A DNA stretch of 64,000 nt from an uncultured Clostridia bacterium. Its GTDB lineage: Bacteria; Bacillota; Clostridia; Oscillospirales; Acutalibacteraceae. A program made the position numbers and the translations under genes. Below are positions 42,643-63,314 of this stretch, piece after piece; position 1 is the stretch's first letter; each line of letters begins with the position of its first letter. Below the pieces are notes generated by a model, which made no database searches, had not been told where the DNA came from, and saw only the letters and a program-made list of their open reading frames with translations. Where the stretch lies: contig CALCYI010000002.1 of the NCBI GenBank assembly GCA_937907605.1, positions 48,852 to 112,851 of the forward strand, in the 5' to 3' direction.

Positions 42643-42718
42643 GGGGCATTAGCGCAGCTGGGAGCGCACCACACTGGCAGTGTGGGGGTCAGGGGTTCAA
42701 GTCCCCTATGCTCCACCA
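42643..42718 (+). tRNA. tRNA-Ala (anticodon GGC)
   Basis: Acceptor GGGGCAT/ATGCTCC with G3:U70, anticodon stem CCACA/TGTGG with loop CTGGCAG, T-loop TTCAAGT, encoded CCA. Confidence 0.9.
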
Positions 42719-42720
42719 AT

Positions 42721-42759
42721 AAAACTCTGACACCTTTAGGTGTTGGAGTTTTATTTTTT
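42721..42759 (+). terminator. Rho-independent terminator after tRNA-Ala(GGC)
   Basis: Long stem AAACTCTGACACC-TTTA-GGTGTTGGAGTTT followed by a T-run. Confidence 0.65.
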
Positions 42760-42786
42760 GAACCTTTCTCATATGATATAACGGTG

Positions 42787-43191
42787 ATGAAAATGCTGTC
42801 TGCAATACTTTCCTTTATCGGTGCGAATATTCTCTTTTTAATCCTGCACATCCAGAACTCCTCCTCTTTTCCGAAGCCGCTTTCCGCAAAGGAGGAAAAG
42901 GAATACCTGCTTAAAATGGCGGACGGGGATATGAACGCGCGGGCTGTGCTTATTGAGCGTAATCTTCGCCTTGTATCCCATATCGTGAAAAAATACTACT
43001 CCAAAACGAACGATACCGACGAGCTGATTTCAATCGGCACGATAGGACTTATCAAGGCGGTGGACTCCTTTGATATGAATAAGGGAATACACCTTGCAAC
43101 CTACGCTTCAAGGTGTATAGAAAATGCTATACTAACACAGCGGATACTTTTGACGGTGTTTTCACTCAGAATGTGTTCCATGTCCCGCTAA
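42787..43191 (+). pseudogene. sigK: sigK 5' portion (pro-sequence plus regions 1.2-2.4), interrupted by inserted DNA near 43126-43137
   Basis: MKMLSAILSFIGANILFLILHIQNSSSFPKPLSAKEEKEYL...LIERNLRLVSHIVKKY...LISIGTIGLIKAVDSF...LATYASRCIEN matches pro-sigma-K. After CIEN(AIL) the frame reads non-sigma sequence and stops at 43191. No regions 3-4 appear anywhere in the window. Confidence 0.75.
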
Positions 43192-43724
43192 TTGACGAAT
43201 GGAGCGTTTTATCCGCCGATAATCGACTCGCCTTGCTCCACAGGATACATTACGGTAAAATTGAGTATGGAGTTTTCTTTTCGTATCGTGTTTTCGTGAA
43301 CGATTTTAAGCAGTACTCCAAAAAATCGTATGAGCAGATTGACGGCAACACGCTGCACGGCAGGATTCGTAAAAGAAGAATTGACAAACAGATATATGTA
43401 GGCGATATACACAAATTACTCGGTGTCAGTTATTCGCAGTATATTAAAATAGAAAACGGCGAGTATCAGCTTCATCATATGGACAAGCTTATTAGGCTTT
43501 GCGAGATACTTAATATAGCGCCCGAAGAGATTTACACGCCTTACCAGATTTTCATTATGAACAACCAGGGCAAGCAGATAAAAGCGTATAGAAAAGCTAA
43601 TGGTTTAACGCAAACCGAATTAGCAGAACGTCTTTTCGTACATAGAAAGACCGTTTCAAAATGGGAAAATAACACCTGTCAAATGCCGTTTGAGAAATGG
43701 GAAAAAATCAACGGTGTTTGTTAA
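43113..43724 (+). CDS. XRE-family regulator with two HTH_3 domains (start codon uncertain)
   Basis: LHGRIRKRRIDKQIYVGDIHKLLGVSYSQYIKIENG and IKAYRKANGLTQTELAERLFVHRKTVSKWENN. The track start is a GTG inside the sigK fragment, and there is no internal ATG before the first HTH. Confidence 0.55.
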   Translation: MYRKCYTNTADTFDGVFTQNVFHVPLIDEWSVLSADNRLALLHRIHYGKIEYGVFFSYRVFVNDFKQYSKKSYEQIDGNTLHGRIRKRRIDKQIYVGDIHKLLGVSYSQYIKIENGEYQLHHMDKLIRLCEILNIAPEEIYTPYQIFIMNNQGKQIKAYRKANGLTQTELAERLFVHRKTVSKWENNTCQMPFEKWEKINGVC

Positions 43725-43769
43725 GAAAGAATACGCCGCAACGGATGATATTGATCCGCTGCGGCTTTT

Positions 43770-43934
43770 TTACAGTTCCTTTTTCAGTTCTTTGAGTATT
43801 TCCGTCTTTTCGGCATACGAAATCGGAAAGGAGTTTATCCTTTCAAGCATAGCCTTGCCGACGATATATCCGGCTTGCTTTTCAAATTCTTTCCATTGAT
43901 CTTCGCTTTTCGGCAGATAAACTATCGCTTTCAT
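43770..43934 (-). CDS. Small hypothetical protein (54 aa, below the ORF-track cutoff)
   Basis: Own translation: MKAIVYLPKSEDQWKEFEKQAGYIVGKAMLERINSFPISYAEKTEILKELKKEL. GGGGAGAG lies upstream, and a terminator hairpin (43741-43770) lies downstream. Confidence 0.3.
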   Translation of the reverse strand: MKAIVYLPKSEDQWKEFEKQAGYIVGKAMLERINSFPISYAEKTEILKELKKEL

Positions 43935-44134: not shown

Positions 44135-45667
44135 TTACATCGACTGACCGAAGCCTTCGTCTTCATCAAGGTCTTCGTCAGTGTCGTTACTGTTGTTCTG
44201 ATTTGTGTTTTGAAGTTGTTGCTGATAGCGTTGCTGCTGGATTGCACGGCGGAGGGAGAAGTCAATAATGCCTGTGCCGATGTTGAGAAGCGCTTCTGCG
44301 TTTTCGGCTGCCCTGCGGCTGTCTTCTTCATTCTTCTCCACCTTCGTGTATTCGCCGCCGACGGAACGCTCGCCGTGAGCAATGCGTTTCTGCTGCTCTT
44401 TGGTGAGCTCCTTGCTGTCCGTCTGCTGTCGCTTTTGCGCATTGATTTCGTTGATGCGGTCAGCTGCCTTGCTGTTGAACAGCGTGGCAATGGATTGCAG
44501 CAGGCTGTTGTAAATATTCGTGTTCTTGCCGATATTCTTCCAGCCGTTATCCGCTCCGAAGATCAGCGATTCCAGTACCGCTTTTATCAGCATATTTTTC
44601 AGCGATTTGAATTCCTTGTTCGCTTCAATCGGAATGTCAGGTGTTTTCTCGCTGTCGTGATAGAGCGCAAGTTTCAGGCGGTTAATCTCGTTCCACTTTG
44701 CGTACATATACTGAAGCGGCAGATTTTCATTTACGATATGCTTCAGCAAATTATCTACGGTGTTCTTGACGTTCTTGGGAAGATAACCGTAAATCTTTTT
44801 GCCTTTGCAAGCATTAAGCTCATTTTGCAGTTGCTTAATCAGTTCAGCAGTTTCATCCGTAATCGGAAATCGCCTGCAGGATATTCCTTCAAGCACTTCT
44901 TTCATCTCCGCTTTCAATTCGTCACGAACGCCCGTCTGCTCTCTGAATAATTTCAGTTGTTCGTTACGGAAAATATCGTTACCGAAGGTACTGCGCATCT
45001 TTTCCATTCCCTTTTTCGTAAGATAGCCCTGACCGGTTTTTGATAAGACTATCAGGTGAATATGCGGATGATGCGTCGTGTTATGAAACGCTGCATACCA
45101 TTCCATATCGCTCGGTTTAAGCTTATGCGCTTCGGCAAGCTCATTCATATTACGGCGCACACATTGTTTCCATGCATCTGCATTGTTGTAGCCAAGGCGT
45201 TCAGCGTCTTCACGGCGCAGGCTGACGACGTGCGTCCAGACGACTCCCTGATGATTTGAAACTTTTTCGGCAATGTCGTCAAGGTTAATCGCTTCGTCCG
45301 TTGCAGAAAACAGACCGTGCGAGCCGAGTTTTTCAACGCCCGGGCGCTCGGCAATATATGAAACAAGGCTCTTAAGTTCATCGGTACGGTCAGCGTCACG
45401 CTCGGCTACTGCGTCGATAAACTCATTGGCGTTAGCTTTGGACGGTTTTGAAATGAAATCGTCGAACTCAATATATTTTTTCGTATCGGGAAAGCATTTT
45501 GTAATTCTGTTTATCAGAGTGAATTGCTGCTGAGTAGCAATAGCGTTGTCAGTACCTTTCGGTAACTTTTCAACGCCCTCACGAGTACCCATATACTTTA
45601 CGAGTTTTCCTGCATTTTGAACGGACGGATTTTTAATGAACCTGCTTGATACAATTATCTTTGCCAT
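44135..45667 (-). CDS. Conjugative relaxase, MobL-like (HUH-type with HxH metal site)
   Basis: N-terminal MAKIIVSSRFIKN...LVKYMGTREGVEKL and HNTTHHPHIHLIV (histidine triad), followed by a coiled-coil, Gln-rich C-terminus. Confidence 0.65.
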   Translation of the reverse strand: MAKIIVSSRFIKNPSVQNAGKLVKYMGTREGVEKLPKGTDNAIATQQQFTLINRITKCFPDTKKYIEFDDFISKPSKANANEFIDAVAERDADRTDELKSLVSYIAERPGVEKLGSHGLFSATDEAINLDDIAEKVSNHQGVVWTHVVSLRREDAERLGYNNADAWKQCVRRNMNELAEAHKLKPSDMEWYAAFHNTTHHPHIHLIVLSKTGQGYLTKKGMEKMRSTFGNDIFRNEQLKLFREQTGVRDELKAEMKEVLEGISCRRFPITDETAELIKQLQNELNACKGKKIYGYLPKNVKNTVDNLLKHIVNENLPLQYMYAKWNEINRLKLALYHDSEKTPDIPIEANKEFKSLKNMLIKAVLESLIFGADNGWKNIGKNTNIYNSLLQSIATLFNSKAADRINEINAQKRQQTDSKELTKEQQKRIAHGERSVGGEYTKVEKNEEDSRRAAENAEALLNIGTGIIDFSLRRAIQQQRYQQQLQNTNQNNSNDTDEDLDEDEGFGQSM

Positions 45668-46071
45668 CAGTTGTCACCGCTCATAAGTTCGTCCGCTTCT
45701 TCCAGAGAAATATATCCGTTGGTCTGAGCAACTTCTTCATTGACAACCTTATTAAGTTCTTGCCAGTCCACGCCTGTATAATCATTAAACGCTGCGTTAA
45801 GACGGTTTAATTTTCCGATTTCAACCGCCATCTTGAAGAGCATTTCGCACATACCTTTTTCCGTATGACGAATTTCATTTTTGATTACTGAAGTTATCAT
45901 CGGCGAGAGATAATCTGCATTTTCATTTTGCAAAAGGTAGCCGATATAGAAATCAATCGCCGTGCGGACGAAGTCACTTCGGTTGACGCAGTTGGATAAA
46001 GGCAGCACTTTATCCATTTGTTTCACCTGACTAGGCAGCTGAAAGTACGCAAACTTTTTCATCGTTTCCAT
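45667..46071 (-). CDS. Relaxosome accessory protein (ribbon-helix-helix-like)
   Basis: RSDFVRTAIDFYIGYL RHH-like segment, and a stop/start overlap with the relaxase. Start moved to ATG 46071 (AGGAG 9 nt upstream). Confidence 0.5.
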   Translation of the reverse strand: METMKKFAYFQLPSQVKQMDKVLPLSNCVNRSDFVRTAIDFYIGYLLQNENADYLSPMITSVIKNEIRHTEKGMCEMLFKMAVEIGKLNRLNAAFNDYTGVDWQELNKVVNEEVAQTNGYISLEEADELMSGDN

Positions 46072-46127
46072 TGTAATCATCTCCTGAATTGTTAATTTGA
46101 GCATACCCCTGTAAAAAATTTCAAAAA

Positions 46128-46143
46128 CAGTCCGCACTGCGGG
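46128..46143. repeat. 16-nt repeat copy B: CAGTCCGCACTGCGGG (palindrome CCGCA-C-TGCGG); candidate oriT core
   Basis: Located about 60 nt upstream of the accessory and relaxase genes. Confidence 0.5.
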
Positions 46144-46295: not shown

Positions 46296-46604
46296 CTACC
46301 AAATTTTATTGATAGTGTAGAGATTAGAGAGTCTGTTGCCGTTTGTGTAATCATATCGGTGCGTAATTGAAATCAAACCTTTATCCTCAAGCACCTTAAT
46401 CGCTTCATCAACCGTAGGCTCGGACATACAGCATTCTTTGGCGATAGTGCTTCTTGAAGGATAGCAGTTAAACTTTTTCATATCTGCACGGTGAAACAGA
46501 TAACAGTAAACGGCAAAGTCCCTCGCCTTCAGTTTTTCTTTATAGATACAATTCGGTACGATAAAGAAATTGCCTGAAGGGAATTTTTTGTTACTATGAA
46601 CCAT
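46296..46604 (-). CDS. Winged-helix DNA-binding protein (plasmid/ICE replication- or regulator-like)
   Basis: FFIVPNCIY...ARDFAVYCYLFHRADMKKFNCYPSRSTIAKECCMSEPTVDEAIKVLEDKGLI is typical of helix-turn-helix-domain proteins on Firmicute mobile elements. Confidence 0.55.
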   Translation of the reverse strand: MVHSNKKFPSGNFFIVPNCIYKEKLKARDFAVYCYLFHRADMKKFNCYPSRSTIAKECCMSEPTVDEAIKVLEDKGLISITHRYDYTNGNRLSNLYTINKIW

Positions 46605-46722: not shown

Positions 46723-49700
46723 ATGAATTCAAAGAAATATCGCATTTATGAGCTATCTGCAAGAGCCATAATTGCAAACTCAAAACTGAATTCCGAGGGG
46801 AGAACAATCTTCAATCTCAACTCTGCACAGACAGAAAAGTGCAGGGTTATTTCTGCTTCTCAAGAGCAGGAAAGCAACGCCCTGTTCTATCAGATTATGT
46901 GTGAGAAAAACGGAAACGGTTTTAGTGTTGGAGAGGAGAATGTTATCACCGAACTTGAAGATATAATCTTCTACTGCAACTTTGAAAACATATTTGACAG
47001 AGACGGCAGTTTAAAGAAATACGCTGACCTTCAGAGCAGAGCAAGAGATATGTTTCGTCCCGAAGGTATCACGCTTGACTTCGGCTCGAGTGCATTTCAA
47101 TTCGTTGCATTTGAACGTTCGGCAAGTATGAGCCGCAACGCAAAGCTATCTTTTATCCGCGCCGACTACTATGAGCCGATAAGGAAAAGAATAATGCTCG
47201 GTATGACAATCGATGATTGCCAGCTTTCAAAGCTTTACGCATATAACGGACTGCTGCTGTCCTCGGGAACGAGAATTGAAAACATAAATATTGAAAAGCC
47301 GCATCGGGTAATCGTAATTGATAATCAAAAATACACCGTTGATGCAACGAAAATTATTACAGTTGAAGACGACGGTACGAATGATTCCGTTCGTAAATAT
47401 ACAAGAAAAGAAACGAGAGGCGCAGTGGAGATAACAGGTTTTGACGGCGAAGGTCTTATCTCAAAAGAATACGCCGCCGTTATTGACAAAGCCTACTGCG
47501 GTGAACACTGTCATACCTCTTTTCAGATTCGTCTGCCGTATGTAAAAGGTATGTTGCACCAGGTTGATTTCAAAGACTTTCTTCACAGTGCAGGAACAAA
47601 GACGATAACGGACGTTTTCGGAACCGTTCACAAGGTTAAGGATGTGGATATTATTCTGACCAAAAGTATGTTCAAGGGCTACGGCTGGTTGCTTGATAAC
47701 GGTATGACGTGGGCTGACTACTGGAAGGCATTTTCTGAATACAATCACGCTTTGTATATCACGAACGTCAGCAAGGAACATCCCGAAGAATTTACGGAAC
47801 TGAACTATCAATTTCTGAATACGCTTTCGCTTACAAGAGATGAATTTCGTCCTGCCGATTTACCTGACGGTTGGACTTCTTCCCCTGCTGATAATGAGCG
47901 TAACTGGCTGACGAAGGAAACGGAAACTGCTTACTACAATCTCTGTGCTGATGAAGAATACCGTCTGAACTATTTTCTTAAATATCTGAAGAGACACAAC
48001 CGCAAAACGAAGAATTATCGATTAGCTACTATACTGAAAAGCAATCCGCTTTTTATCAACGAGCCCGTTTACACAAAAGAATTAGAGAACCATGCTGAAA
48101 ACATATTGAAAAAATATGCGCTTGGTAAGTTAATCGTTGCAGGCGATAACCGATTTCTTTCCGGTGATTTAATTGAGATTTTGAATTTGCTGCTTTCGCA
48201 CACCGGCAAAAAAGATAGCAGAGAGCGAAGGTTTTATTCAGTTGCCGTTTCCAATCGCTTTGCAAAGAATTCTTACTATGCGCCGCAGATTGCGTACAAA
48301 CACGGTGGCGAATGCACGCTTCTTCGTAATCCGCATATTGCAAGAAACGAGGAAATTCAGTTAGCCGTTTATCCGCAGGTAGAGCAGATGCGTAAGCATT
48401 ATCTCGGTCATCTTTCGGATATCGTTATCATTGACACACATATGCTCGCCGCAGAGCGACTCGGCGGAGCAGACTATGACGGCGATATGATTAAAACCAT
48501 ATCCGACCCGATTATCAATGCGGCGGTTAAGCGGAATTATGAACTTGACAGTCTTGACAATATGAACAACATTCCGCTTTTAAAAATCCCCGATGCCGAA
48601 CCGCTTATCCGTAATGCTGACGACTGGGAAGCGAGATTTGAAACGGTAAAGAGCACATTTTCTTCACGCGTCGGTCAGATATCAAATGCCGCGCTTGACC
48701 GAAGCATTATTGCTTACGATGAAAACTCCGATTCCGCTTTGCGTAAAAAGTGTCGTGAGGAAACGGAAACGCTCGCTATATTAACGGGTCTTGAAATTGA
48801 CTCTGCAAAAAGCGGAGTTAAGCCCGACCTTACCGAATATCTCGGCAGCGGAAGTATCTCACGCAGTATTTTCCTGACTCACAAAAATCTGGTTGAACAA
48901 TCTGAAACCCGTCGGGAATGGTATCAGGACACTCACCGAGACAAAATCAACAAATTCTTTTCTCAGACTGACTGGAACGCCGTCAGTTCAAACCTTGAAC
49001 TGCTCCCGTACTTTGCCCGTCAGCTGAAAAAACACACGCCGAAGATAAAGGCTCATCCTGCAAAGGACAGCGAGATGTTTGCTTTTGCGGTTAACGATAA
49101 CTGGAAAGATAATCTTGATGCGGATATTCTTTCTGCAGTCAGTGACTTAATTTTGGATTATGAGGCGGTACTCAACCGCATCCGCTTTTGCAAGGTTCCG
49201 ATTAAAAACAAGAACCGCAAAAGCGGTATTGACCGTATTCTTTATTCGAGAGGGCAAGAGAAAATATATAATTCTGATGAACTGTATGCGCTTTTCCAAC
49301 TACTTTCCCCTGAACGTATTTCTGCAATTCGAAATGCAATACGGGGTGAGCGTTGGCATCTGATGGGAGAAAAAGAAAGAGAAGATTTCCTGAACGGATA
49401 TCTTCCCGACGATGATTTTAAGGATTATTATTCTCTCCTTTGTGATTTTCGTTTCGGCGGTTACAAAGTGCTGTACGATTTGATTGCCGATATTGACGAC
49501 GAAAACGCCGCGCTTGATAACAAAAGGCTGATTCGTGATACAGATTCAGCGACATTTGCACAGATGATGCAGGCGTATATGGACAAGTCCGCCGCCGTTT
49601 CATACCGTGAAGCCGTATCTGTAAAATGCAGAGAGTTGCTTGACGGAATAGTTAAGCCAACCGTAGCCGTGCAGTACGTCGTTGCGCTCGGCAAACGGAA

Positions 49701-49758
49701 TCTTCTTTTTGATTTGCTGCTTGACAGCGTTGAAAAAACCGTTTTGAAAAAGGATTAA
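46723..49758 (+). CDS. Eukaryotic-type RdRP-like / two-barrel (double-psi beta-barrel) RNA polymerase homolog, 1011 aa
   Basis: Four ordered signature motifs: AFQFVAFERSASMSR (nt 47092-47136), FQIRLPYVKGM (47521-47553), LLRNPHIARNEE (RNPH at 48325-48336) and GGADYDGDMIKTISDP (DYDGD at 48472-48486). They parallel FLAFS.SQLR, FQIRygGyKGv, KNPcLHPGD and GGDLDGD of cellular RdRPs. Confidence 0.75.
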   Translation: MNSKKYRIYELSARAIIANSKLNSEGRTIFNLNSAQTEKCRVISASQEQESNALFYQIMCEKNGNGFSVGEENVITELEDIIFYCNFENIFDRDGSLKKYADLQSRARDMFRPEGITLDFGSSAFQFVAFERSASMSRNAKLSFIRADYYEPIRKRIMLGMTIDDCQLSKLYAYNGLLLSSGTRIENINIEKPHRVIVIDNQKYTVDATKIITVEDDGTNDSVRKYTRKETRGAVEITGFDGEGLISKEYAAVIDKAYCGEHCHTSFQIRLPYVKGMLHQVDFKDFLHSAGTKTITDVFGTVHKVKDVDIILTKSMFKGYGWLLDNGMTWADYWKAFSEYNHALYITNVSKEHPEEFTELNYQFLNTLSLTRDEFRPADLPDGWTSSPADNERNWLTKETETAYYNLCADEEYRLNYFLKYLKRHNRKTKNYRLATILKSNPLFINEPVYTKELENHAENILKKYALGKLIVAGDNRFLSGDLIEILNLLLSHTGKKDSRERRFYSVAVSNRFAKNSYYAPQIAYKHGGECTLLRNPHIARNEEIQLAVYPQVEQMRKHYLGHLSDIVIIDTHMLAAERLGGADYDGDMIKTISDPIINAAVKRNYELDSLDNMNNIPLLKIPDAEPLIRNADDWEARFETVKSTFSSRVGQISNAALDRSIIAYDENSDSALRKKCREETETLAILTGLEIDSAKSGVKPDLTEYLGSGSISRSIFLTHKNLVEQSETRREWYQDTHRDKINKFFSQTDWNAVSSNLELLPYFARQLKKHTPKIKAHPAKDSEMFAFAVNDNWKDNLDADILSAVSDLILDYEAVLNRIRFCKVPIKNKNRKSGIDRILYSRGQEKIYNSDELYALFQLLSPERISAIRNAIRGERWHLMGEKEREDFLNGYLPDDDFKDYYSLLCDFRFGGYKVLYDLIADIDDENAALDNKRLIRDTDSATFAQMMQAYMDKSAAVSYREAVSVKCRELLDGIVKPTVAVQYVVALGKRNLLFDLLLDSVEKTVLKKD

Positions 49759-49990: not shown

Positions 49991-50006
49991 GGCTATGGTG
50001 ATTAAC

Positions 50007-51263
50007 ATGTATATTCCCCGTCATTTAGAAGAAAGGCTGTTAAAATCAAGCGAAACATATAAATCTGTTTTGGTAACAGGCGCAAGGCAGGTAGGTAAAT
50101 CTACACTGCTTAAACAAATATTTCCTGATAGGAAGTATGTTTCTCTTGACGACCCCTTTATAGAAGAACAAGCAAAAGAAAACGGAAGCATGTTTTTGAT
50201 GCTCAACCAACCTCCCGTTACGATTGACGAGGTACAAAGAGCACCCGAATTGTTTCGCTATATTAAAATCAAATGCGACGAAACAGATGATAAAGGACTG
50301 TTCTGCCTTTCAGGTTCACAGCAATTCAAATTAATGCAAAACGTTTCCGAAACGCTGTCTGGCAGAATTAATATAATTGAGCTTGCGGGATTATCGCTCA
50401 GAGAAATTCAGAGCGATTCTTTTAACAAACGATTTCTTCCCACTCTGGAATATATTACAGAAAGGCAGAAAACGGCAAAAGCCCCTGAAAACATCTGGGA
50501 AATTATTCACCGTGGCTCTTATCCCGCGTTACAGGACAAGAACCTCGACTGGGCGTCTTTTTATGCAGATTATGTTAAAACGTATATTGAAAGAGATGTA
50601 CGCGAACTGTCTGCCGTGCAGGACTTAGACGCTTTTCGCCGTTTTATGATTGCAACAGCAGCAAGAACGGGAGAGATTCTTAACTACAGCAGCATTGCAA
50701 GTGAAATCGGCAAAGACATCGGAACAGTTAAAAACTGGATTTCCATTCTTGAAGCCTCCGGCGTTATATATTTACTGGAACCCTACACGGCATCCGTTCT
50801 TAAACGCGCTATCAAATCGCCCAAGCTGTATTTCCGTGATACGGGACTGGCTTGTTACCTGACTCGCTGGCTGAGTGCAGAAGCGCTTGCATACGGTGCT
50901 ATGAGCGGTCATATTTTTGAGACCTTTGTTATATCAGAGCTCTTGAAATCTTTTTCAAATGCAGGACTTGATTACAGTTATTTTGTTTCCTATTATCGCG
51001 GAAGAGATAAAAAGAAAATAAAGCAGAACGGCGAAGAAATTGAACTGGAAAGCGAAATAGATTTTATCATTGAGGAAAACGGCGTTCTTTATCCAATTGA
51101 AATCAAGTCTGCTTCTAAGGTTACTGCAAGCGAAACGAGTGCGTTCACCGTGCTTGATAAAATAGAAAATAAAAAGCGTGGTGCGGGCGCTATTATTTGT
51201 ATGTGTCCTCAGCCCGGCAGTCTCAGGGAAAACGTGCTTCAGATTCCTGTTTGGTATATATAA
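50007..51263 (+). CDS. AAA-family ATPase of the AAA_14/DUF4143 type
   Basis: MYIPRHLE N-terminus and Walker A VTGARQVGKST, with a C-terminal restriction-endonuclease-like region typical of DUF4143. Start could also be 49995. Confidence 0.7.
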   Translation: MYIPRHLEERLLKSSETYKSVLVTGARQVGKSTLLKQIFPDRKYVSLDDPFIEEQAKENGSMFLMLNQPPVTIDEVQRAPELFRYIKIKCDETDDKGLFCLSGSQQFKLMQNVSETLSGRINIIELAGLSLREIQSDSFNKRFLPTLEYITERQKTAKAPENIWEIIHRGSYPALQDKNLDWASFYADYVKTYIERDVRELSAVQDLDAFRRFMIATAARTGEILNYSSIASEIGKDIGTVKNWISILEASGVIYLLEPYTASVLKRAIKSPKLYFRDTGLACYLTRWLSAEALAYGAMSGHIFETFVISELLKSFSNAGLDYSYFVSYYRGRDKKKIKQNGEEIELESEIDFIIEENGVLYPIEIKSASKVTASETSAFTVLDKIENKKRGAGAIICMCPQPGSLRENVLQIPVWYI

Positions 51264-51265
51264 TT

Positions 51266-52096
51266 ATGTTAAACGAAATTGAAGAATTCAAGGCATATAC
51301 CACGCCCGTTATCTATACGGCTGAAAGTAAAAGAGATACTTCTTATCTTGGCAGGTTTACCTTTGATGCCTTTATGGAATTCAGAGGACTCAGCCGTGTG
51401 CTGACGATTATTGCCCGAGGGTATATGTTTGAAACCGAAATGCCGGATACCGAGCGTGCAAGGCGTGCCTTGTGCGCCTGGTGCAGTATGCCTGAAATGA
51501 AAAAAGCCACTCCTAAAGAGGCGTGGCAGTTTACAACAGATTTCCGTTACCTTCACGGTGAGTTCCCCGAACTCGTTGATAACAATGGTAACGGGTGGTA
51601 CTTTCATCATATTAAAAATGTGTATAAATTTATTAAATGCTATCCAGACAAGGTAAGCAAGGTTGCCGTTAATAAAGCTGATTTGCTCGGCAGCAAGTAT
51701 GACAGAGAATGGCACAAAAAACTGTTGCAGTTTCAATATCCTATATTTACGCCACAGACAGAAAGCTGGGTAATGACTTTTGACAGTATCGTTGCAGATG
51801 CATTAGTGCTCGGTCCGCTGAAAGACAAGACAGTTAATCTTTCCGAAGAAACTCTGAAGAGAATTAACGAGTTTAATACAAGCGACGTGCCTGAAGAAAT
51901 TATCGTTCTTTTAGTACAATACTATCTTGCGAATAAGCCTGACGATTCAGACTGGGTGGTGCTACCGACGGCGAACTTTGATATGTATTTCGGCAACACC
52001 AATTTCAGCAAGAAGTGGCTGAAACAAATTCCCGACAGCATAATTATCCGCGACACTTTCAGTTTTGGCGTCGGAAGATACAAAGTCGTTATTTGA
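51266..52096 (+). CDS. Hypothetical protein (276 aa) coupled to the ATPase gene
   Basis: ATG lies 2 nt after the ATPase stop; no motif recognised. Confidence 0.5.
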   Translation: MLNEIEEFKAYTTPVIYTAESKRDTSYLGRFTFDAFMEFRGLSRVLTIIARGYMFETEMPDTERARRALCAWCSMPEMKKATPKEAWQFTTDFRYLHGEFPELVDNNGNGWYFHHIKNVYKFIKCYPDKVSKVAVNKADLLGSKYDREWHKKLLQFQYPIFTPQTESWVMTFDSIVADALVLGPLKDKTVNLSEETLKRINEFNTSDVPEEIIVLLVQYYLANKPDDSDWVVLPTANFDMYFGNTNFSKKWLKQIPDSIIIRDTFSFGVGRYKVVI

Positions 52097-52218: not shown

Positions 52219-52881
52219 TTATTTGTTTTTCAGATATTCAGCTGAAACGGGAAAATCAAAATAGGTGTCAGGAAAAGGCTCATCCTTTAAGGTAAAATGC
52301 CACCATTCGCAGTCTATTGGTTCAAAGCCGTTTCGCACCATAATTTTTTGCAGGAACATACGGTTTTCGTACTGCTCGTCGGTAACGCCCTTGTAATCGG
52401 GATGCGAAACCTCGCTGAAAAAGTCAAACGGACTGCCCATATCAATTTCCTTGCCCGTTGCCATATCAAGCAGCGTTAAATCAACGGTGCTGCCTCTGCT
52501 ATGGCTTGACTGACTTGCGATATAGCCAAGCTCAAATAGCGCCGTTTTTTCAAGGTCGGGATAGAAAAAGGGTTTCGTTCTTAAATCCAAATCCTCAATA
52601 CCCCAAAGCACAAAATGCTTGACTGCTCTTGCAGGTCTGTACGCGTCAAATATTTTTAGTCGGTAACCTGCAACGTTTGCCTCGTTCGCAACAGCTTTCA
52701 GCGCTCTTGCCGCGTCTTTCGTGATAATCGCACAGGGCTCTTCATAACCGTCAACTCTGTCGCCGACAAAGTTATAGGTTGAAAAATAGCGGATTTCCTG
52801 CACGATGGAGGGAACGTAATCCGAAAGTAATACAAAGCGCGAGCAATCAAGCTCTGCTTCTCTTTTAAAATCAGTAGCCAT
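52219..52881 (-). CDS. D-alanyl-D-alanine dipeptidase (VanX/DdpX, M15D)
   Basis: SHSRGSTVDL (SxHxxGxAxD) and CEWWHF motifs. Confidence 0.8.
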   Translation of the reverse strand: MATDFKREAELDCSRFVLLSDYVPSIVQEIRYFSTYNFVGDRVDGYEEPCAIITKDAARALKAVANEANVAGYRLKIFDAYRPARAVKHFVLWGIEDLDLRTKPFFYPDLEKTALFELGYIASQSSHSRGSTVDLTLLDMATGKEIDMGSPFDFFSEVSHPDYKGVTDEQYENRMFLQKIMVRNGFEPIDCEWWHFTLKDEPFPDTYFDFPVSAEYLKNK

Positions 52882-52885
52882 AACG

Positions 52886-53689
52886 TTATTCCTTACTCAT
52901 AAATTGTAACAGGCGCTCTTTATAATCGGGAGCAGTATCAAAAGCGGCGTGACCGTAGCCGTTATACAGATAACTTTCAAAATCTTGATTATCCGAAAAC
53001 AAAATTTCAAGCTCTTCAGCAGCACCGGGCAGCACCTTATCGTCCGCTGCGCCGAGTGATAAAACGGGACATTTAATGTTGCGGAGTTCCTTTGATATAT
53101 CAAAATCTTTTGTGCCTTCGGCAAAAAGAATGAAACGTTCGAGTTCAGAGTCGGTAATGCTTTCGCCCGTCTTTTTCAGCACCTCTTTATACTGCTCAAA
53201 AAGAGCCTCGGGATAAAGGACCCTGCCCATTTCAAGGCTGAGATTAATTCCGTCTTTTTTCTTTGCCAGAGCAGTCCACTTTGATATTGCGTTAAACTGC
53301 TTTTCGGTAATACGTGCCGAAGAGGAGCCGAGCATCAGCTTTTTGACATGTTCGGAATAACGGGCAGCAATCGTCATAGCAATCATTCCGCCCTGCGACG
53401 CACCGAAAAGATAAATGTCCTTCAGTCCGAGAGTGCAAAATATCTTTGCCGTATTCTCAGCCATATCGTAAACGGAATACTGCTGCGGAAGCTCGTTTCT
53501 TCGGTCAAACACATAAGCAGTGAATTCCTCTGCGATAACGGCATAAGCCTTTTCAATCATATCCGCAGCGCCCATCACGCTCTGAACGCTCATCCCCGGA
53601 AGGATAATGAAAGTCTTTTCGCCCTTTCCGAAGGTAAAATAGTTCATAGTGAAATTATCGGCGCATGCCGTTTTAATCGAAATACTCAT
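52886..53689 (-). CDS. Alpha/beta hydrolase
   Basis: GASQGG nucleophile elbow (GxSxG); 267 aa. Confidence 0.65.
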   Translation of the reverse strand: MSISIKTACADNFTMNYFTFGKGEKTFIILPGMSVQSVMGAADMIEKAYAVIAEEFTAYVFDRRNELPQQYSVYDMAENTAKIFCTLGLKDIYLFGASQGGMIAMTIAARYSEHVKKLMLGSSSARITEKQFNAISKWTALAKKKDGINLSLEMGRVLYPEALFEQYKEVLKKTGESITDSELERFILFAEGTKDFDISKELRNIKCPVLSLGAADDKVLPGAAEELEILFSDNQDFESYLYNGYGHAAFDTAPDYKERLLQFMSKE

Positions 53690-53694
53690 ATTAA

Positions 53695-54831
53695 TCAGAA
53701 ATAAAGTTTATCTATTTTAGGCACGTTTTCGATTAAATAATCCTTGCAAAACGCAACAACTTGATCTCCAAAGCGCAAAGCGTCGTTGTGCCTTGATATC
53801 CATCTGAGCAGGCGCGCATAACAGATAGTTTCAACCATTCTTATGATGCTGTCAACCTTTTCCTGCTCCTCACCTTCAAAATAGTACTTAACCGTGTATT
53901 TCCAGAAATCTTCGCACTGCTCACGCTTAATTCCAAGAAAATTTGCGCTGTTTTCTTTATCAACGCAGCTGAATCCGACGTATGCTGCAAAGATAGCAGC
54001 GAATTCAAAAACGGGATGTCCCATAGAAAGCGTATCCATATCAATCAGCAGGTTTTCGCCGTTTTGCTGCATGATATTTTTGATATGATAATCGCCGTGG
54101 AGCATATTATTCGTTTCAGGAATATCCTTAAAAAGCGAGAGCAACTTTTCGCCGATTTCCTCGGGAAGATGAGGCTTAACATATTCAGCCCAGCCGATTG
54201 CCTCTTCACTTTTGCTCGGAAGTTCGCCGTCCTTTAGCATAGTTGAATGAATCGTTTTAAGAATGTCTACGCTCTCCTTTGCAAGTTCGTCAATGTCGCC
54301 GCCTTCGGCAATAAGTTTTGAAAAGGACTTGGCATTAAGCAGCTCGAAAACCGAGCCGTATAAATCACCAACCTGAACAACGTCGTAAGGAATAGCCGTT
54401 GGAATTCCCATAACAAAGGCTTTTCTTGCAAGCTCGCGCTCATTATGTATTTCGTCAAGCGAATCGGGGTTTTTATAAACCTTAACGATAGTGTCGGGGT
54501 CCGTACGGTAAACGATACCGTTTGCACCCTCTCCGATAACCTCGCATCCTTCAACGGAAAGCTTTCTGTACGCCTTTGAAATATCCATCATTTCCGTAAA
54601 GCCCGTCATATCAAAGATTTCATAAACCTCTGAATTACAGTTTACTACCTTTGTTTCGGCGTTTGCTTTTTTCAGGCGTAGAATAACGCGAAGTCCTGCG
54701 CTTGAAATATATTCAAGCCCGCTTGCATCAAGAATAAGCTCGCCGCTATAATCGCCTATCTGTTCATTGATTTTTGCTTCTGTTTCTGCCGCATTTGAAG
54801 AATCAATTCGTCCTGTTAAATTAATAGTCAT
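53695..54831 (-). CDS. STAS domain fused to an APH/choline-kinase-like phosphotransferase domain
   Basis: N-terminal LEYISSAGLRVILRL (SpoIIAA-like phospho-serine motif) and a C-terminal Brenner-type HGDYHIKNIM...LIDMD kinase motif. Confidence 0.6.
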   Translation of the reverse strand: MTINLTGRIDSSNAAETEAKINEQIGDYSGELILDASGLEYISSAGLRVILRLKKANAETKVVNCNSEVYEIFDMTGFTEMMDISKAYRKLSVEGCEVIGEGANGIVYRTDPDTIVKVYKNPDSLDEIHNERELARKAFVMGIPTAIPYDVVQVGDLYGSVFELLNAKSFSKLIAEGGDIDELAKESVDILKTIHSTMLKDGELPSKSEEAIGWAEYVKPHLPEEIGEKLLSLFKDIPETNNMLHGDYHIKNIMQQNGENLLIDMDTLSMGHPVFEFAAIFAAYVGFSCVDKENSANFLGIKREQCEDFWKYTVKYYFEGEEQEKVDSIIRMVETICYARLLRWISRHNDALRFGDQVVAFCKDYLIENVPKIDKLYF

Positions 54832-54835
54832 TAGT

Positions 54836-55399
54836 TTAGTCCTCCCCGTTGAAAACGTGAGTTACGAGCTTTTCATATTCCTTATATGCAGGATAGTCTG
54901 AAAGTTCTCTGATATATTCAAGTATCGTTGAATGATACCAGTATTGCTCTTTTGGATTCTTTTCGTTAAAACGGTCAAACACCGCTGCGCCGATTTTGTC
55001 AAAATCTCTTGCAAGTGAGCGCATATTGGAGAGCTTATCGCCGAGCCAAAGCATTTTGGTTTCAATGCCCGCGTCTTTCAACACGGCAAGGCTTTCTTCC
55101 TTGCGGATTTTCCACGACTGACTAGGCGGCATATCGGGACGTTTATCCTCCGTTTCGTGCGCTACGAGTTCTGCGACTCTTGGTCCGAAATTATCAAGAA
55201 TATCCTGCGCAGTAACAGGCGTATCCTCCACCGTATCGTGAAGCACGGCGGCAGCAAGAATCTCTAAGTCATTTGTCATCGTGCCGACAATCGTTGCATC
55301 CTCAAGCGGATGAAGAATATACACGCCGCCGTCCTTTCTCGTCTGTCCCTCGTGCGCTTTAAGCGCAAAGGCAACGGCTTTATCAAAAACATTGCTCAT
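54836..55399 (-). CDS. HD-domain protein, SpoT/Mesh1-like (p)ppGpp hydrolase type
   Basis: HPLEDATIV...AAVLHDTVEDT signature; 187 aa, with no synthetase domain. Confidence 0.65.
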   Translation of the reverse strand: MSNVFDKAVAFALKAHEGQTRKDGGVYILHPLEDATIVGTMTNDLEILAAAVLHDTVEDTPVTAQDILDNFGPRVAELVAHETEDKRPDMPPSQSWKIRKEESLAVLKDAGIETKMLWLGDKLSNMRSLARDFDKIGAAVFDRFNEKNPKEQYWYHSTILEYIRELSDYPAYKEYEKLVTHVFNGED

Positions 55400-55412
55400 A
55401 AAACTGTTTCCT

Positions 55413-57434
55413 TTATATTTTCTTTGTCATAGTCAGAATATTATAGCCGTCCTTGTATTCATACGAAACGGAGTCCATATTCTTTTTGGTAAGGTATATA
55501 CCGAGCCCGCCGACTTCTCTTTCATCTGCTGAAAGTGAAATATCAGGGTCTTCCTTTTCAAGCGGATTATACGGAACGCCGCTATCCTTGAACGTTATAG
55601 TGATTTCGCCGTCGCTGCAATCCGCAGATATTTCCGCCTTGCCTACGCCGTCGCCGTAAGCATAATTTGCAATATTGACATAGATTTCCTCAACGGATAA
55701 GTCAATTTGCATTTGGGCTTTCATTGATGCGCCGTTTTCTTCCAAAACGCCGTCAACAAAATCCATTACCGTATGCAGGTTTTCCGTTGTGGCGTCTACG
55801 GTCAGCGTATTTCCCTCATTGCCTTTCAGTTCAAGACAGAGCATGGTTAAATCGTCAAACTGCGCTGCGTCACCGACGAACTCACTCACACACTCATTAA
55901 CGCCGTCCAGAATATCCTGTGGTTTTTCATCTTTATACTTATTCAGCGCCTCAATCATACCGTTTAAGGTGAACATTTTTTCGTCCTTATCGGTAGCCTC
56001 CGGCAGACCGTCGGTATAAAGGAAAATTTTATCACCCTTATTCAGTTGAATTTCAAAGTCCTTGTATTTTATGCCTGACATTGCGCCTACGACAAGACCG
56101 TGCTTATTCTTAACAATTTCAAACTGACCGCCCTTGCGATAAACTGCGGGGTCGTCGTGACCTGCGTTTGCAGCGAGGATTTTGCCCGTTGAAATTTCAA
56201 GAATACCGAGCCATACCGTTACGAACATATCCGCCTGATTATGGTCGCATATACTGTCATTAACAAAGGTGAGAATTTCGGCAGGAGTGCCGCCCATATG
56301 CGTTCTGTCGCTGATAAGAATATTCGTTACCATCATAAACAGCGCTGCGGGAATACCTTTGCCTGAAACGTCCGCCATTACCATAGCGAGATGGTCATCG
56401 TCAACAAGGAAGAAATTATAGAAATCGCCGCCGACCTCCTTTGCAGGAGTCATTGAAGCGTAAACGTCAAAATCCTTTCTTTGCGGGAAGGCGGGGAAAA
56501 TATTTGGAACTGAATTTTCCTGAATGGTTTTGGCAATATTCAGTTCTGCGCCGATACGCTCCTTTTCGGAGGTTACGGCAGTCAGATTATCAATGTATGC
56601 CAGCATATCGTCCTCCATTTTATCAATGGAACGGGCAAGCGTTGAAATTTCTTCAATTTTGCTGACGTTGCCAAGCTCGTCGCCCTTTTTGTTTTCCAAA
56701 GCGAAACGGCTTGTTTCACTGCTGACGCGCTTCATCGGATTTACAAATTCCTTGCGAATATAAAAGGCTGAAGTTAAAGCAACCATCACGGAAAGAATAA
56801 CCGTTGAAATGGCAATATTTATTAAATACGGACGTCTGGCATCTCTCAGCTCCTCCATGGGTCTTTGAATGCACATCAAGCTGACAACCTCGCCCTGCGA
56901 ATTTTTAAGAGGTGCTAATGTTGTGATATGCGGCGGCGCACCGTTTAGTTTAGTCGTTCTGTAAACTGTGCCGTAAGCGAGGTCGTTTTCATATATATCA
57001 CGATAGATTTCAACATATTCCTCGTTCGTGGTGTCCTGTTGATAACCAATTTTCCAAGGCGTGTATGGCGTATCCTCTCCGACGGAATTGAACACAGACG
57101 TAAACCTGCCGTAATCAGTGGTATCGACCTTGATGACGTACACAATAGAAACATCCATTTTCTCGCAGAAGGCGTCAAGATACTGCTTTGTCTGCTGATA
57201 TTCCTCCGACTGCCCGCCGTCTGCAAGATAGTCATCAATATGGTCGCCGTTTACAAGTAAGGCAGCAGTATCAGCCATACTTGCGGTCGTATTACTGTAT
57301 TCTCTTTTAAAAGCGTTTGTAAAGCTGACATAGCCTATAACGCTCACAATCCAGCTGAACACTAAAAGCAGCAACACTACGGCGCTTATAATATTAAACG
57401 CTAAGCTACTGCGTAATTTTTGTATCTTTTTCAT
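55413..57434 (-). CDS. Membrane sensor: extracytoplasmic domain-HAMP-PP2C (SpoIIE-type) phosphatase fused to an RsbW/SpoIIAB-like HATPase
   Basis: Two TM segments, PP2C motifs (EVGGDFYNF, MADVSGKGIPAALFM, TDGLPEA) and a C-terminal GGLGIYL ATP-lid motif. Confidence 0.7.
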   Translation of the reverse strand: MKKIQKLRSSLAFNIISAVVLLLLVFSWIVSVIGYVSFTNAFKREYSNTTASMADTAALLVNGDHIDDYLADGGQSEEYQQTKQYLDAFCEKMDVSIVYVIKVDTTDYGRFTSVFNSVGEDTPYTPWKIGYQQDTTNEEYVEIYRDIYENDLAYGTVYRTTKLNGAPPHITTLAPLKNSQGEVVSLMCIQRPMEELRDARRPYLINIAISTVILSVMVALTSAFYIRKEFVNPMKRVSSETSRFALENKKGDELGNVSKIEEISTLARSIDKMEDDMLAYIDNLTAVTSEKERIGAELNIAKTIQENSVPNIFPAFPQRKDFDVYASMTPAKEVGGDFYNFFLVDDDHLAMVMADVSGKGIPAALFMMVTNILISDRTHMGGTPAEILTFVNDSICDHNQADMFVTVWLGILEISTGKILAANAGHDDPAVYRKGGQFEIVKNKHGLVVGAMSGIKYKDFEIQLNKGDKIFLYTDGLPEATDKDEKMFTLNGMIEALNKYKDEKPQDILDGVNECVSEFVGDAAQFDDLTMLCLELKGNEGNTLTVDATTENLHTVMDFVDGVLEENGASMKAQMQIDLSVEEIYVNIANYAYGDGVGKAEISADCSDGEITITFKDSGVPYNPLEKEDPDISLSADEREVGGLGIYLTKKNMDSVSYEYKDGYNILTMTKKI

Positions 57435-57437
57435 ATT

Positions 57438-57734
57438 TTATCCTATGGTAAGAATATCTGAAAAACCTGTCATATCAAGGATTTCCATTACGTCATTGTT
57501 AACGTTTATAAGCCTCATTTCGCCCTGTGCCTTCATTTTCTTTTCCGCCTTCAAAAGCACACGCAGTCCTGCCGATGAAATGTAAGACATCTCTTTTAAG
57601 TCAAGCACCAGCTCAGTGATACCGTCAATACTGTCAAAAATAGTTTTTTCAAGTTCAGATGCAGTAGTCGTATCCACTCTGCCCGATACAAGAATTGTAA
57701 GTTTTCCGTTTTCTTTGTTTGATGTGAGTTGCAT
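57438..57734 (-). CDS. STAS-domain anti-sigma-factor antagonist (SpoIIAA/RsbV-like)
   Basis: LKEMSYISSAGLRVLLK with the conserved phosphorylatable Ser; 98 aa. Confidence 0.8.
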   Translation of the reverse strand: MQLTSNKENGKLTILVSGRVDTTTASELEKTIFDSIDGITELVLDLKEMSYISSAGLRVLLKAEKKMKAQGEMRLINVNNDVMEILDMTGFSDILTIG

Positions 57735-57774
57735 TTCAATATCTCCTTAAATATTTTATTATATTCTAAAGGTT

Positions 57775-59067
57775 TTACACTTTACCTTTACTTTTCTTTG
57801 GAAGAATCGTGTAAGGCAGATTGCGTTCATGACTGCCGAGCCCCTTGAAGTGAATATTCTCTTCCCTCATAGCCTCGCAGAACGCATCATAAAATTTGTG
57901 CTTACCGTTGAGTTCCATAAAGGTAAGATAGAATTTATCACGCAGAGCGTTTACTTCAAGCAGAAGATGTCCGTCCGTAATGCAGTGTATGCGATCTATG
58001 TATTCCTCCAAGCCGTACCACTCATCCTTGCCGACGTAACTTACGATAAAGGTGCCGAATGGAGGCTGTACGTGCTGACTGTGTGTAAGCGTAAAGAGCT
58101 TCTTATTCAGCAGTCCTTTCTTATTATCTACGTCATCCATAGACTTATATATGCTTTTCATTATCTTTGAACTGAATTCGGGCTGCATCTGGACGTACAT
58201 CATACTGCGGGTAACGGTGCTTAAATATTCCGTCGTCTTGCTTTCAAGCTCACGAGGATAGTAGACGGAAAGCATACGCACCAAGTCGTGATACGTATTG
58301 GGACAGCCGACGTCCGCACGGTAATTGCATATAATGTTTCCACGGATTGCCTTTGCAACCTTTGGCGATGTAACCTTGCAGATTGCACGAAACATCAATG
58401 CAGATAGAATTGAATTGGGGCTGCCGTCGTTACTGCGGGCGTATTTCATAAAGTCTTTTGTTTCAAGTTCAAGCTCGTAGTATTTTGCGTCCCTGAAAGG
58501 CATTGAAACAAGCTGTTTTACGTAATCAGCCGCAGGGATATACACGCTGTCCTTTTTTATGCTGCCAAGAGGCTCGTCATCAGTAAGCGTTTCAAGGTCG
58601 GGATAGTCGGTTTCTCCGTCAACAAACGGTGTATCTGCGGTTTTGATATCGCCGATTTCCGTTTCAACGCCGAAGGCTTCCCTCACGTAATACCAAAGCG
58701 TACTCTTAATGAAGAACATAGCGCCGCAGCCGCCGCACATTCCGTGATATATATTGAAATAAACATCATTGCCCTCATATTCAATACTGAACAGATGATA
58801 GTTTACTTCCTCCGTGCCCATACGAGGATGCTTGCCGCTATATTGTTTTACTGTTATCGGCAGCGGATTGTCAACAAGTTCAATTTCACCGTTTTTGAGA
58901 ATACTAATTCTTTTTGCATAATACGGAAAACGCTTAAAGGCTGTATTAGCCGCCATTTCAAGCGCTTTGGCGTCAACCTTTTGGCGCATTACAAATTTAA
59001 GGCGGAAATTATAAGTAATAAATTTGCCCGCTTCGTACAGTAAATAACTGTCAGGATTCTGTTTCAT
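57775..59067 (-). CDS. Hypothetical protein (430 aa)
   Basis: Start placed at ATG 59067, 7 nt after GAGGAG. YHGMCGGCG loosely recalls the HxxxDG acyltransferase motif but lacks the Asp. Confidence 0.45.
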   Translation of the reverse strand: MKQNPDSYLLYEAGKFITYNFRLKFVMRQKVDAKALEMAANTAFKRFPYYAKRISILKNGEIELVDNPLPITVKQYSGKHPRMGTEEVNYHLFSIEYEGNDVYFNIYHGMCGGCGAMFFIKSTLWYYVREAFGVETEIGDIKTADTPFVDGETDYPDLETLTDDEPLGSIKKDSVYIPAADYVKQLVSMPFRDAKYYELELETKDFMKYARSNDGSPNSILSALMFRAICKVTSPKVAKAIRGNIICNYRADVGCPNTYHDLVRMLSVYYPRELESKTTEYLSTVTRSMMYVQMQPEFSSKIMKSIYKSMDDVDNKKGLLNKKLFTLTHSQHVQPPFGTFIVSYVGKDEWYGLEEYIDRIHCITDGHLLLEVNALRDKFYLTFMELNGKHKFYDAFCEAMREENIHFKGLGSHERNLPYTILPKKSKGKV

Positions 59068-59157
59068 ACGGCTGCTCCTCTTATCGTGATAAAAATATTC
59101 TATCATAAAATGTACAAAAATACAATAATAAGGGCTGTGTTTCCACAGCCCTCTTAA

Positions 59158-60072
59158 TTATGCGCCGAAGTGAATTACTGTGTATTCGTAACCTTCTGCT
59201 TCTTCAAGCTCGTGTTCTGCTTTAAGTGTGTCGTCAAGACCGAAGGTAACCTTGAAGCCGTCGCCCTCGCCCTCTTTGAGCTCGTTAAAATTCTTTGCAA
59301 AAGTATCAGCATTTGTCGGCTGAAGCTTTGCTACGGTATTCATAATTGACTGATAGGTAAGGTCGCTTCTTTCGCCGTACTCGCTAACGATGATATCAAC
59401 GGAATCCTTGTTGCCGTAATAAATCACTCTGATTTTACCGCAATTGATAACGCCGTTAATATCGTTTTCATCAAGCGCGTCGGTATATTCGAGCGCATTT
59501 TCGTTAACGTACATCGTATCAAGGTCGGTCATATCCCACTTACCTGCGATATAAAGCTTCATCGTGGTTGTGCCTGCTTCATCGGTTTCGGTAATAAAAT
59601 ATTTATTATCAATTCCGAAATACTCACAGCCGGAGATATAACCTGTTGTAAGGTCGGAATCCATACCGAGATACTTATCGGCAGCGGATTTAAGGAACAT
59701 GAAGAAGGAATAGCCTATGTAATCCTCGGAGTTTGCTTCCTGCTTGTAAGTCAAAAAGTCGCCGTCAAGCTTGAATTCGTAGTTACCGCTAACGCCCTCG
59801 TCGCCGCTGATATTAATAATAATGCTGTCGCCCTCAACCTTTTCTTCAAAAGCGGTATTAGGATACATAGTCTTATAATCTGCATACTGCTCGTCAGCCT
59901 TGAAATTATCAAGGATAGTCTGCAAAGCAGCAGTATTATCAGCCGTGTCGCTCTGTGACGGTGTGTCTGTGTTTTCCGCCTTGTTTGAGCCGTTTGACGA
60001 ACAGGCGGCAAAGGAAAATACGAGCGCCCCGATAAGCATTAATGCTACTAAAGCTTTACTGAATTTTTTCAT
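59158..60072 (-). CDS. Lipoprotein, function unknown
   Basis: Signal peptide with lipobox FSFAAC. Confidence 0.6.
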   Translation of the reverse strand: MKKFSKALVALMLIGALVFSFAACSSNGSNKAENTDTPSQSDTADNTAALQTILDNFKADEQYADYKTMYPNTAFEEKVEGDSIIINISGDEGVSGNYEFKLDGDFLTYKQEANSEDYIGYSFFMFLKSAADKYLGMDSDLTTGYISGCEYFGIDNKYFITETDEAGTTTMKLYIAGKWDMTDLDTMYVNENALEYTDALDENDINGVINCGKIRVIYYGNKDSVDIIVSEYGERSDLTYQSIMNTVAKLQPTNADTFAKNFNELKEGEGDGFKVTFGLDDTLKAEHELEEAEGYEYTVIHFGA

Positions 60073-60085
60073 AGTCTTTCTCCTT

Positions 60086-63064: not shown

Positions 63065-63170
63065 TTTTCATCTCTCCTTTTGTTTTTTGATGATTTATTA
63101 TAATTTATTGTATTATAATATGTCGCGTCCAACAAATGTCCAACAAAAAACGGCGTTTTTTAAAAAATGA

Positions 63171-63198
63171 TAAAAAACTTCCTGCACAAGCAGGAAGT
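63171..63198 (-). terminator. Rho-independent terminator
   Basis: ACTTCCTGC-ACAA-GCAGGAAGT stem with a T-run on the minus strand. Confidence 0.65.
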
Positions 63199-63314
63199 AT
63201 TTGCATTTGAGTTTATTCTGTTGTAACCGTAGTTTTGGTAATAAACAGGTCAATCGCCATAGGCTTCCATATGTTTTTCTTAGTGTTTTCCATAACCCTT
63301 TCACCTCTCGCCCA

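Follow-up and report, generated by a model that had tools for sequence, protein, structure and literature searches.

A sigK gene split by a probable skin-type element with mobilisable cargo in an uncultured Clostridia bacterium

The sigK gene in a 64,000-nt stretch of DNA from an uncultured Clostridia bacterium (the window, by which we mean the whole stretch that was analysed) is very probably interrupted at codon 113 by a single skin-type integrative element of 25,758 bp, which would be excised in the mother cell by the element's own large serine recombinase (LSR). In favour of this reading we counted the two intact sigK halves in cis, an 8-bp core at the junctions, the symmetry of the reconstructed attP site and the presence of the same recombinase family at the same codon in dozens of Clostridia. 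Counted against it were the small 54-aa gene of the element, at which no sigma-E-type promoter was detected, and a recombinase of the same family that lies away from sigK in another genome (locus L002). Split sigK genes with an excisable element are textbook examples in B. subtilis and C. difficile. They have also been reported for C. tetani, for the C. perfringens phage phiS63 (PMC3442830) and for an Alicyclobacillus phage (PMC13141910).

The 5′ half of the gene was recognized in an open reading frame at 42787-43191. A tblastn search with B. subtilis SigK aligned residues 7-116 with window positions 42802-43134 at 56% identity (E 3e-36) and gave no second significant match in any frame of the 64-kb window. 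Sigma70_r2 is the only sigma domain that Pfam reports in this frame (E 2.3e-14). Both searches bear out the original prediction, made from the letters alone, that the frame is pro-sigma-K up to ...CIEN. Past ...ASRCIEN it reads AILTQRILLTVFSLRMCSMSR and then stops, departing from the conserved E(I/L)LMH.R continuation; the departure and the early stop had been described correctly, whereas the number of codons up to the stop is 21 and not 20. The statement that sigma regions 3-4 are missing from the remaining 20.9 kb of the window was likewise confirmed, the 3′ half being located outside it.

The window is part of an ENA metagenome contig (ERZ922529 k127_378541, 119,987 bp, short-read assembly of a bioreactor metagenome, source reads ERR1278104). 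The contig section retrieved as locus L001 and the window have 10,686 bp in common with 0 mismatches and hence belong to the same contig; positions beyond the window end are given as contig-extended coordinates (73741 minus the L001 coordinate). The search for the missing half elsewhere in the assembly succeeded here: the 3′ half is on the same contig and strand as the 5′ half, at a distance of 25,758 bp, and starts 4.9 kb beyond the window end. Its translation reads ...IENELLMHFRAMKK...NISRSYVSRIENKTLGDIRKHVK followed by the stop codon and includes SRSYVSRIENK. The LSR gene is situated directly 5′ of this half, with overlapping gene ends. Joining the halves at the core yields an in-frame ORF of 690 nt encoding a SigK of 229 aa, and neither half contains a frameshift or a stop. 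Over 99-100% of its length, the rejoined protein shares 73-81% identity with hundreds of uninterrupted SigK proteins of 227-229 aa from Eubacterium and Ruminococcaceae-type MAGs (best match 81%), and its alignment with these intact orthologues is collinear and gap-free across the junction. It scores 287 bits against the NCBIfam SigK model NF004471 (cut-off 252) and 203 bits against the SigE model.

The insertion separates CIEN from the following E at about nt 337 of sigK. Short repeats, which the original prediction had proposed to look for, are present at both junctions in the form of the identical 8-mer ATAGAAAA. The attP site reconstructed from the two ends, TTATCCGTCGGGTACGCATAGAAAATGCTATACTAACACAGCGGATA, has inverted arms (ATCCG...CGGAT) that are 34 nt apart, with their midpoint at the final AA of the core (window 43123-43124), the symmetry expected of an LSR site. 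In relatives the blocks of identity between attL and attR differ (e.g. AATGA) and overlap with ATAGAAAA only at AA(A), the codon of Asn113. Because the attP arms are centred on this AA and the identity blocks of relatives meet only at AA(A), the AA at 43123-43124 is most likely the crossover dinucleotide; being non-palindromic, it would fix the orientation of the element. The B. subtilis skin element probably has a 5-bp AATGA core. In the proposed reaction the LSR would recombine attL with attR at the central AA, releasing the element as a circle and rebuilding sigK, and the predicted products are an attB site ...CAAGGTGTATAGAAAACGAGCTTTTAATGCAC... and an attP site ...CCGTCGGGTACGCATAGAAAATGCTATACTAACACAGCGG.... 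By analogy to B. subtilis and C. difficile, excision would take place in the terminally differentiating mother cell whereas the spores would keep the element. No internal att-like site or remnant was found within the element at up to 5 mismatches, so the insertion is one element, and a composite or a tandem pair of elements was ruled out. The features of the locus are listed in Table 1.

Table 1. Features of the split sigK locus. Positions refer to the window; 'extended' marks contig-extended coordinates.
Feature	Position	Strand	Description
-10-like motif CATATGATAT	42770..42779	+	mother-cell type (CATAnnnTA); 17 nt upstream of sigK ATG
sigK 5′ half (spoIVCB equivalent)	42787..43124	+	pro-sequence, region 1.2-2, to codon 113 (..CIEN)
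attL core ATAGAAAA	43117..43124		identical 8-mer at attR
Left-end ORF (199 aa)	43125..43724	+	conserved N-terminal module (..EWSVL..), then two XRE-type HTH; Pfam HTH_3/HTH_19
Hairpin	43735..43765		12-bp stem; between convergent HTH ORF and small gene
Conserved small protein (54 aa)	43770..43934	-	family common to all 20 fully visible elements
Mobilisation module	44135..46137	-	MobL-family relaxase 44135-45667 (Pfam MobL E 9e-31) and upstream 156-aa accessory ORF
HTH_36 / replication-initiator-like protein	46296..46604	-	Pfam, PHROG
YonO-like protein (1011 aa)	46723..49758	+	RdRP fold, GGADYDGD motif; Pfam RdRP PF05183 E 5e-17; phrog_8308 E 4e-58
AAA_14/DUF4143 ATPase, then 299-aa protein	49995..52096	+	PADLOC candidate system PDC-S01, E 4e-97
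Accessory cargo	52219..63740	-	VanX-type dipeptidase, hydrolase, STAS-APH, HD_4, SpoIIE-phosphatase/HATPase_c_2, STAS, two unmatched ORFs, 992-aa surface protein, 141-aa membrane protein
YkuD transpeptidase	63765-64490	-	cut by window end; in-window 3′ end 63765..64000
Response regulator	extended 64733-65533	-	beyond window end
LytS-type histidine kinase	extended 65530-66774	-	beyond window end
Large serine recombinase (594 aa)	extended 67167-68951	+	Resolvase, Recombinase and Zn_ribbon_recom domains; beyond window end
attR core ATAGAAAA	extended 68875-68882		outside window, same contig
sigK 3′ half (spoIIIC equivalent)	extended 68883-69234	+	ELLMHFRAMKK...NISRSYVSRIENKTLGDIRKHVK, then stop; outside window
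Host genes 3′ of sigK 3′ half	extended, beyond 69234		GAF protein, Zn-ribbon protein, copper ATPase, FeoB

Judged by its gene content, the element is an integrative mobilisable element and not a degenerate prophage: it carries its own LSR, a MobL relaxase and a replication-initiator-like protein, and none of the proteins scanned was a phage structural, packaging or lysis protein. Its PHROGs matches are limited to the integrase, regulators, the replication initiator and the YonO-like protein. Domains of type IV secretion systems or coupling proteins were absent from the scanned ORFs, several of which have no Pfam match and which did not include the 141-aa ORF. This content of relaxase and integrase without a detected mating apparatus matches that of integrative mobilisable elements with serine recombinases. 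The part of the element inside the window (43125-64000) gave no megablast match in a plasmid collection. The two halves in cis, the core repeat, the recombinase at the edge and the non-phage, mobilisable cargo thus support the earlier suggestion of a skin-like interruption with different cargo.

Within the cargo, the 1011-aa protein looks like a single-subunit RNA polymerase of the YonO type, with an RdRP fold of the eukaryotic type. Related proteins are encoded by SPbeta-like Bacillus phages and by Thomasclavelia phages, and no sequence relative was found in the PDB. In the present case the YonO-like gene is located in a mobilisable element and not in a phage. The 299-aa protein encoded after the AAA_14/DUF4143 ATPase had no match in any library searched. 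The genes at 53695-57734 (-) resemble a partner-switching set that lacks a sigma factor; they encode a STAS-APH kinase fusion, an HD_4 protein, a fusion of a membrane SpoIIE-type phosphatase with an anti-sigma-type HATPase_c_2 domain, and a separate STAS protein. Between the divergent histidine kinase and recombinase genes the 11-mer TGTCCAACAAA, which includes the reverse complement of GGACA, occurs in two tandem copies (extended 66820-66841; L001 6921-6900).

For a survey of the recombinase family, the LSR was aligned with 16 homologues and the alignment was used to fetch 79 loci from GTDB species representatives. At 68 of the 79 loci the recombinase gene is directly followed by the 3′ half of sigK, starting from about residue 111, and 19 of these loci also show the 5′ half, on the same strand and 2.8-15.6 kb upstream. 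Most of the exceptions are contig ends; others are L002, where the recombinase occupies another site, and L012 and L078, where the layout is reversed. The hosts comprise Oscillospiraceae, Ruminococcaceae, Lacrimispora and other Lachnospiraceae, Flavonifractor, Christensenellaceae, Holdemania and others, and the smallest element of this recombinase lineage measures 2.8 kb, the largest at least 25.8 kb. The L002 recombinase (2327-4075) is 67% identical to that of the present element, and its ORF leaves the family consensus after ...PLGEDR, continuing with NSW; the genes downstream encode membrane proteins and NrdR. Since it lies away from sigK, the recombinase family is not strictly sigK-specific. 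In L012 and L078 the recombinase gene adjoins the 5′ half of sigK on the opposite strand.

The closest relatives of the element carry wholly different cargo, namely BREX (P0122, L082-L084) or several TIR-domain proteins (P0146, L085-L087), and sigK elements in these Clostridia may, to judge from such gene contents, act as defence islands. In both cases these anti-phage genes are located next to the recombinase gene; the BREX genes of the P0122 element encode BrxA/B/C, a PglX-like methyltransferase and PglZ. A sister element, L088, resembles the present one only in the initial 1.27 kb at the left end (84% identity), and L091 shares the right end together with the downstream host genes. The left junction was also found in L089, and these occurrences in L088, L089 and L091 come from independent samples of a related organism. 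Contigs in the attP form were found for related elements (L081, L092); one scan of JGI metagenomes for the family-level attP returned a single contig, L092. Two loci contain tandem copies of elements within one sigK gene, L026 (recombinases 9965-11659 and 17780-19474) and L043 (6995-8662 and 12065-13732). As tandem copies create an internal attP-like junction, the attP-form contigs L081 and L092 need not be free circles.

An all-against-all ORF comparison of the 20 fully visible elements gave only two families present in 20/20, the recombinase and a protein of about 55 aa, the gene of which always lies on the strand opposite to sigK. The copy in the window, encoding 54 aa, was assigned to this family by jackhmmer (E 1.9e-21); searches against Pfam and PHROG gave no match for it. 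On the basis of this conservation we regard the protein as a candidate recombination directionality factor, which probably aids the LSR in excision. Upstream of the small gene, most relatives have the sequence ATA-N17-CATACAnT and, immediately behind the -35 region, a GGACA box, which together we take to be a sigma-E consensus with the core of a SpoIIID box, and the recombinase genes of many relatives have extended -10 boxes of the sigma-A type, e.g. TATGTTATAAT. In C. difficile, experiments have shown that the recombinase CD1231 is made constitutively and that sigma-E and SpoIIID control the directionality factor CD1234 (PMC5025042). The promoter pattern of the relatives matches this logic and would correspond to a constitutive recombinase combined with a factor controlled by sigma-E and SpoIIID.

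We constructed a sigma-E-like position weight matrix from eight relatives and scanned 73.7 kb of the contig. No credible match was obtained upstream of the small gene, the recombinase gene or sigK of the present element; the best score upstream of the small gene was -1.6 (rank 978), so this route lends no support to sporulation control of this copy. The relaxase operon is on the same strand as the small gene and precedes it, so that excision could be tied to transfer instead of sporulation. A scan of 42600-44300 with the sigma-70 consensus gave promoter-like sites no more often than in shuffled sequence, and a terminator scan of the same interval gave one hairpin, between the convergent genes. 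A post hoc observation concerns the 10-mer CATATKATAT, which has only two copies in the 73.7 kb when both strands are considered, one 17 nt upstream of the sigK ATG and one 24 nt upstream of the recombinase ATG. It matches a -10 element of the sigma-K type (CATAnnnTA), and its interpretation as a promoter is only suggestive. Upstream of sigK, a -10-like box of the CATA type (CATATGATA here at 42770-42779, CATAGTATT in L088) also lies about 4-5 nt upstream of a GGTGA ribosome-binding site in both genomes, and further upstream the sequences of the window and L088 are unrelated.

The location of the small gene behind the relaxase operon and the lack of a detected sigma-E-type promoter there would also fit an active mobilisable element that uses sigK merely as a landing site, so that no sigma-K is made while it is present and excision follows the element's own transfer programme. 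The MobL relaxase, the replication-initiator-like gene and the complete exchange of cargo among close relatives (BREX, TIR proteins or the set described here), indicating recent mobility, point in the same direction. However, we consider this explanation unlikely, given that the two sigK halves show no decay and match intact orthologues in their degree of conservation, that the same site is filled across many families of spore-formers and that CATATKATAT occurs solely upstream of sigK and the recombinase gene. Besides, one element can have both roles, as do active phages such as SPbeta and phiS63, which are mobile and are also excised during sporulation (PMC4191935, PMC3442830).

A loss of sigK function is far less probable still. 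The original prediction had left room for a dead gene fragment, which we rejected because the halves are intact and rejoin in frame. A permanent inactivation by insertion in a lineage that has lost sporulation might be considered since some relatives with many such recombinases are reported to be non-spore-forming (Galperin et al., bioRxiv 10.1101/2022.02.25.481979), but it would have to be reconciled with halves free of frameshifts and stops that rejoin exactly in frame, and with an intact recombinase that has all three domains and the YxRxS catalytic motif. It also conflicts with two adjacent, intact genes of the SpoVAC and SpoVAEB families in the window (9209-10062 (-), Pfam E 2e-40 and 4e-37), which indicate that the host is, or recently was, a spore-former; we rate such an inactivation as very improbable. 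The source is a short-read metagenome assembly, and a chimeric contig could in principle have joined sigK to unrelated DNA. This hardly deserves credence in view of the matching core and the attP symmetry at the junctions, the recurrence of the left junction (L088, L089) and of the right junction (L091) in independent samples, and 68 further genomes with the same architecture.

The arrangement is a known and evidently very common one, of which this element is a further instance. Galperin et al. described skin elements of 2.6-48 kb in 15 Firmicutes species, with a SpoIVCA-like recombinase always at the edge, in most cases just upstream of spoIIIC, and without any further gene in common (bioRxiv 10.1101/2022.02.25.481979). 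The present element fits this description exactly, and its bioreactor organism is not among the 15; in contrast to that collection, the present recombinase subfamily has a second universal gene, the one encoding the ~55-aa protein. The skinCd element of C. difficile 630, the excision of which needs the LSR CD1231 and the small factor CD1234 (PMC5025042), likewise has its LSR gene at the edge, upstream of and co-oriented with the 3′ part of sigK. It differs in the insertion site, which is reported to be near that of phiS63 with the core at nt 427 (PMC3442830) instead of about nt 337 (codon 113), in its smaller size and prophage-like content (14.6 kb versus 25.8 kb with mobilisable cargo) and in the size of the factor (His-tagged CD1234 of ~15 kDa versus a candidate of 54 aa). 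Moreover, C. difficile SigK lacks the pro-sequence that is kept here.

With skinBs of B. subtilis 168, where sigK is rebuilt by the LSR SpoIVCA with the small directionality factor Skr (PMC6957869), the present locus shares the splitting of pro-sigma-K into spoIVCB- and spoIIIC-like halves and two layers of control, DNA rearrangement and processing of the pro-protein. However, skinBs is a 48-kb defective prophage whereas phage structural genes were not found here, and the B. subtilis integrase gene is oriented opposite to sigK (Kim et al., PMC3442830), unlike the present one; among the related loci only L012 and L078 show a skinBs-like layout. The gin element in gerE of Bacillus cereus ATCC 10987, which is excised by a serine recombinase (PMC5595907), is another non-prophage element with a serine recombinase that interrupts a mother-cell sporulation gene. 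Its target is gerE instead of sigK, and the present element is much larger and includes mobilisation and candidate defence genes.

A single further sigK-intervening element changes little, and its main value lies in annotation: the sigK of this organism should be annotated as a split gene and not as a pseudogene. The survey as a whole adds more: in dozens of Clostridia from guts and bioreactors a single recombinase lineage occupies one and the same codon of sigK, and the genes that its elements bring along range from BREX and TIR proteins to a candidate defence ATPase and mobilisation functions. This pattern suggests that elements with accessory and defence genes commonly dock in sigK; such cargo would be lost from the mother cell and inherited via the spore. 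The ~55-aa gene offers a testable candidate directionality factor for the lineage and could serve recombinase-based genome engineering. The only real surprise is the possibility that the recombinase exists in two forms depending on the state of integration.

This possibility arises from the position of the recombinase ORF, which crosses attR so that its last 22 codons and the stop are sigK sequence. In the reconstructed attP the same frame runs without a stop into the left-end ORF, giving a fusion of 771 aa that consists of the recombinase, the conserved module and the two XRE-type HTH domains. Several observations speak for such a fusion. No ATG precedes the first HTH domain in the left-end ORF, and a contiguous homologue of 790 aa with the same architecture (P0219) is encoded on L081, a contig in the attP form. 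In-frame continuity across attP was also found in L040, L071 and L063, the linkers of which are very divergent in sequence and have a fixed length of 23 or 26 codons before an (E/K)W(R/S)(L/V)L motif. On the other hand, searches with the left-end ORF returned homologues called only as standalone proteins, and many distant ones are ~190 aa long with a Met start of their own, which weakens the idea. A GTG at 43170 is kept in the sister element L088, and other family members have the core AAATGA, so that the recombinase stop falls at the crossover in both states. Weighing these points, we regard two isoforms, of 594 aa in the integrated state and of 771 aa after excision in the attP form, as a tentative and rather doubtful proposal. 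If true, they might provide a built-in sensor or a switch of directionality or regulation. State-dependent integrase genes occur among tyrosine recombinases (intP/intX of Mx8, SSV1), and to our knowledge there is no example among large serine recombinases or skin elements. Looking through the literature for earlier cases of an integrase gene that extends across attP gave nothing useful.

Two further observations concern host sequences in the window. Upstream of sigK there are two tRNA-Ala genes (42351-42426 and 42643-42718 (+)) with the anticodons CGC and GGC, respectively; as they immediately precede the gene, only ~68 nt are left for the sigK promoter. In addition, a T-box leader at 30840-31058 (+) was found before the gene pair at 31028-34525.
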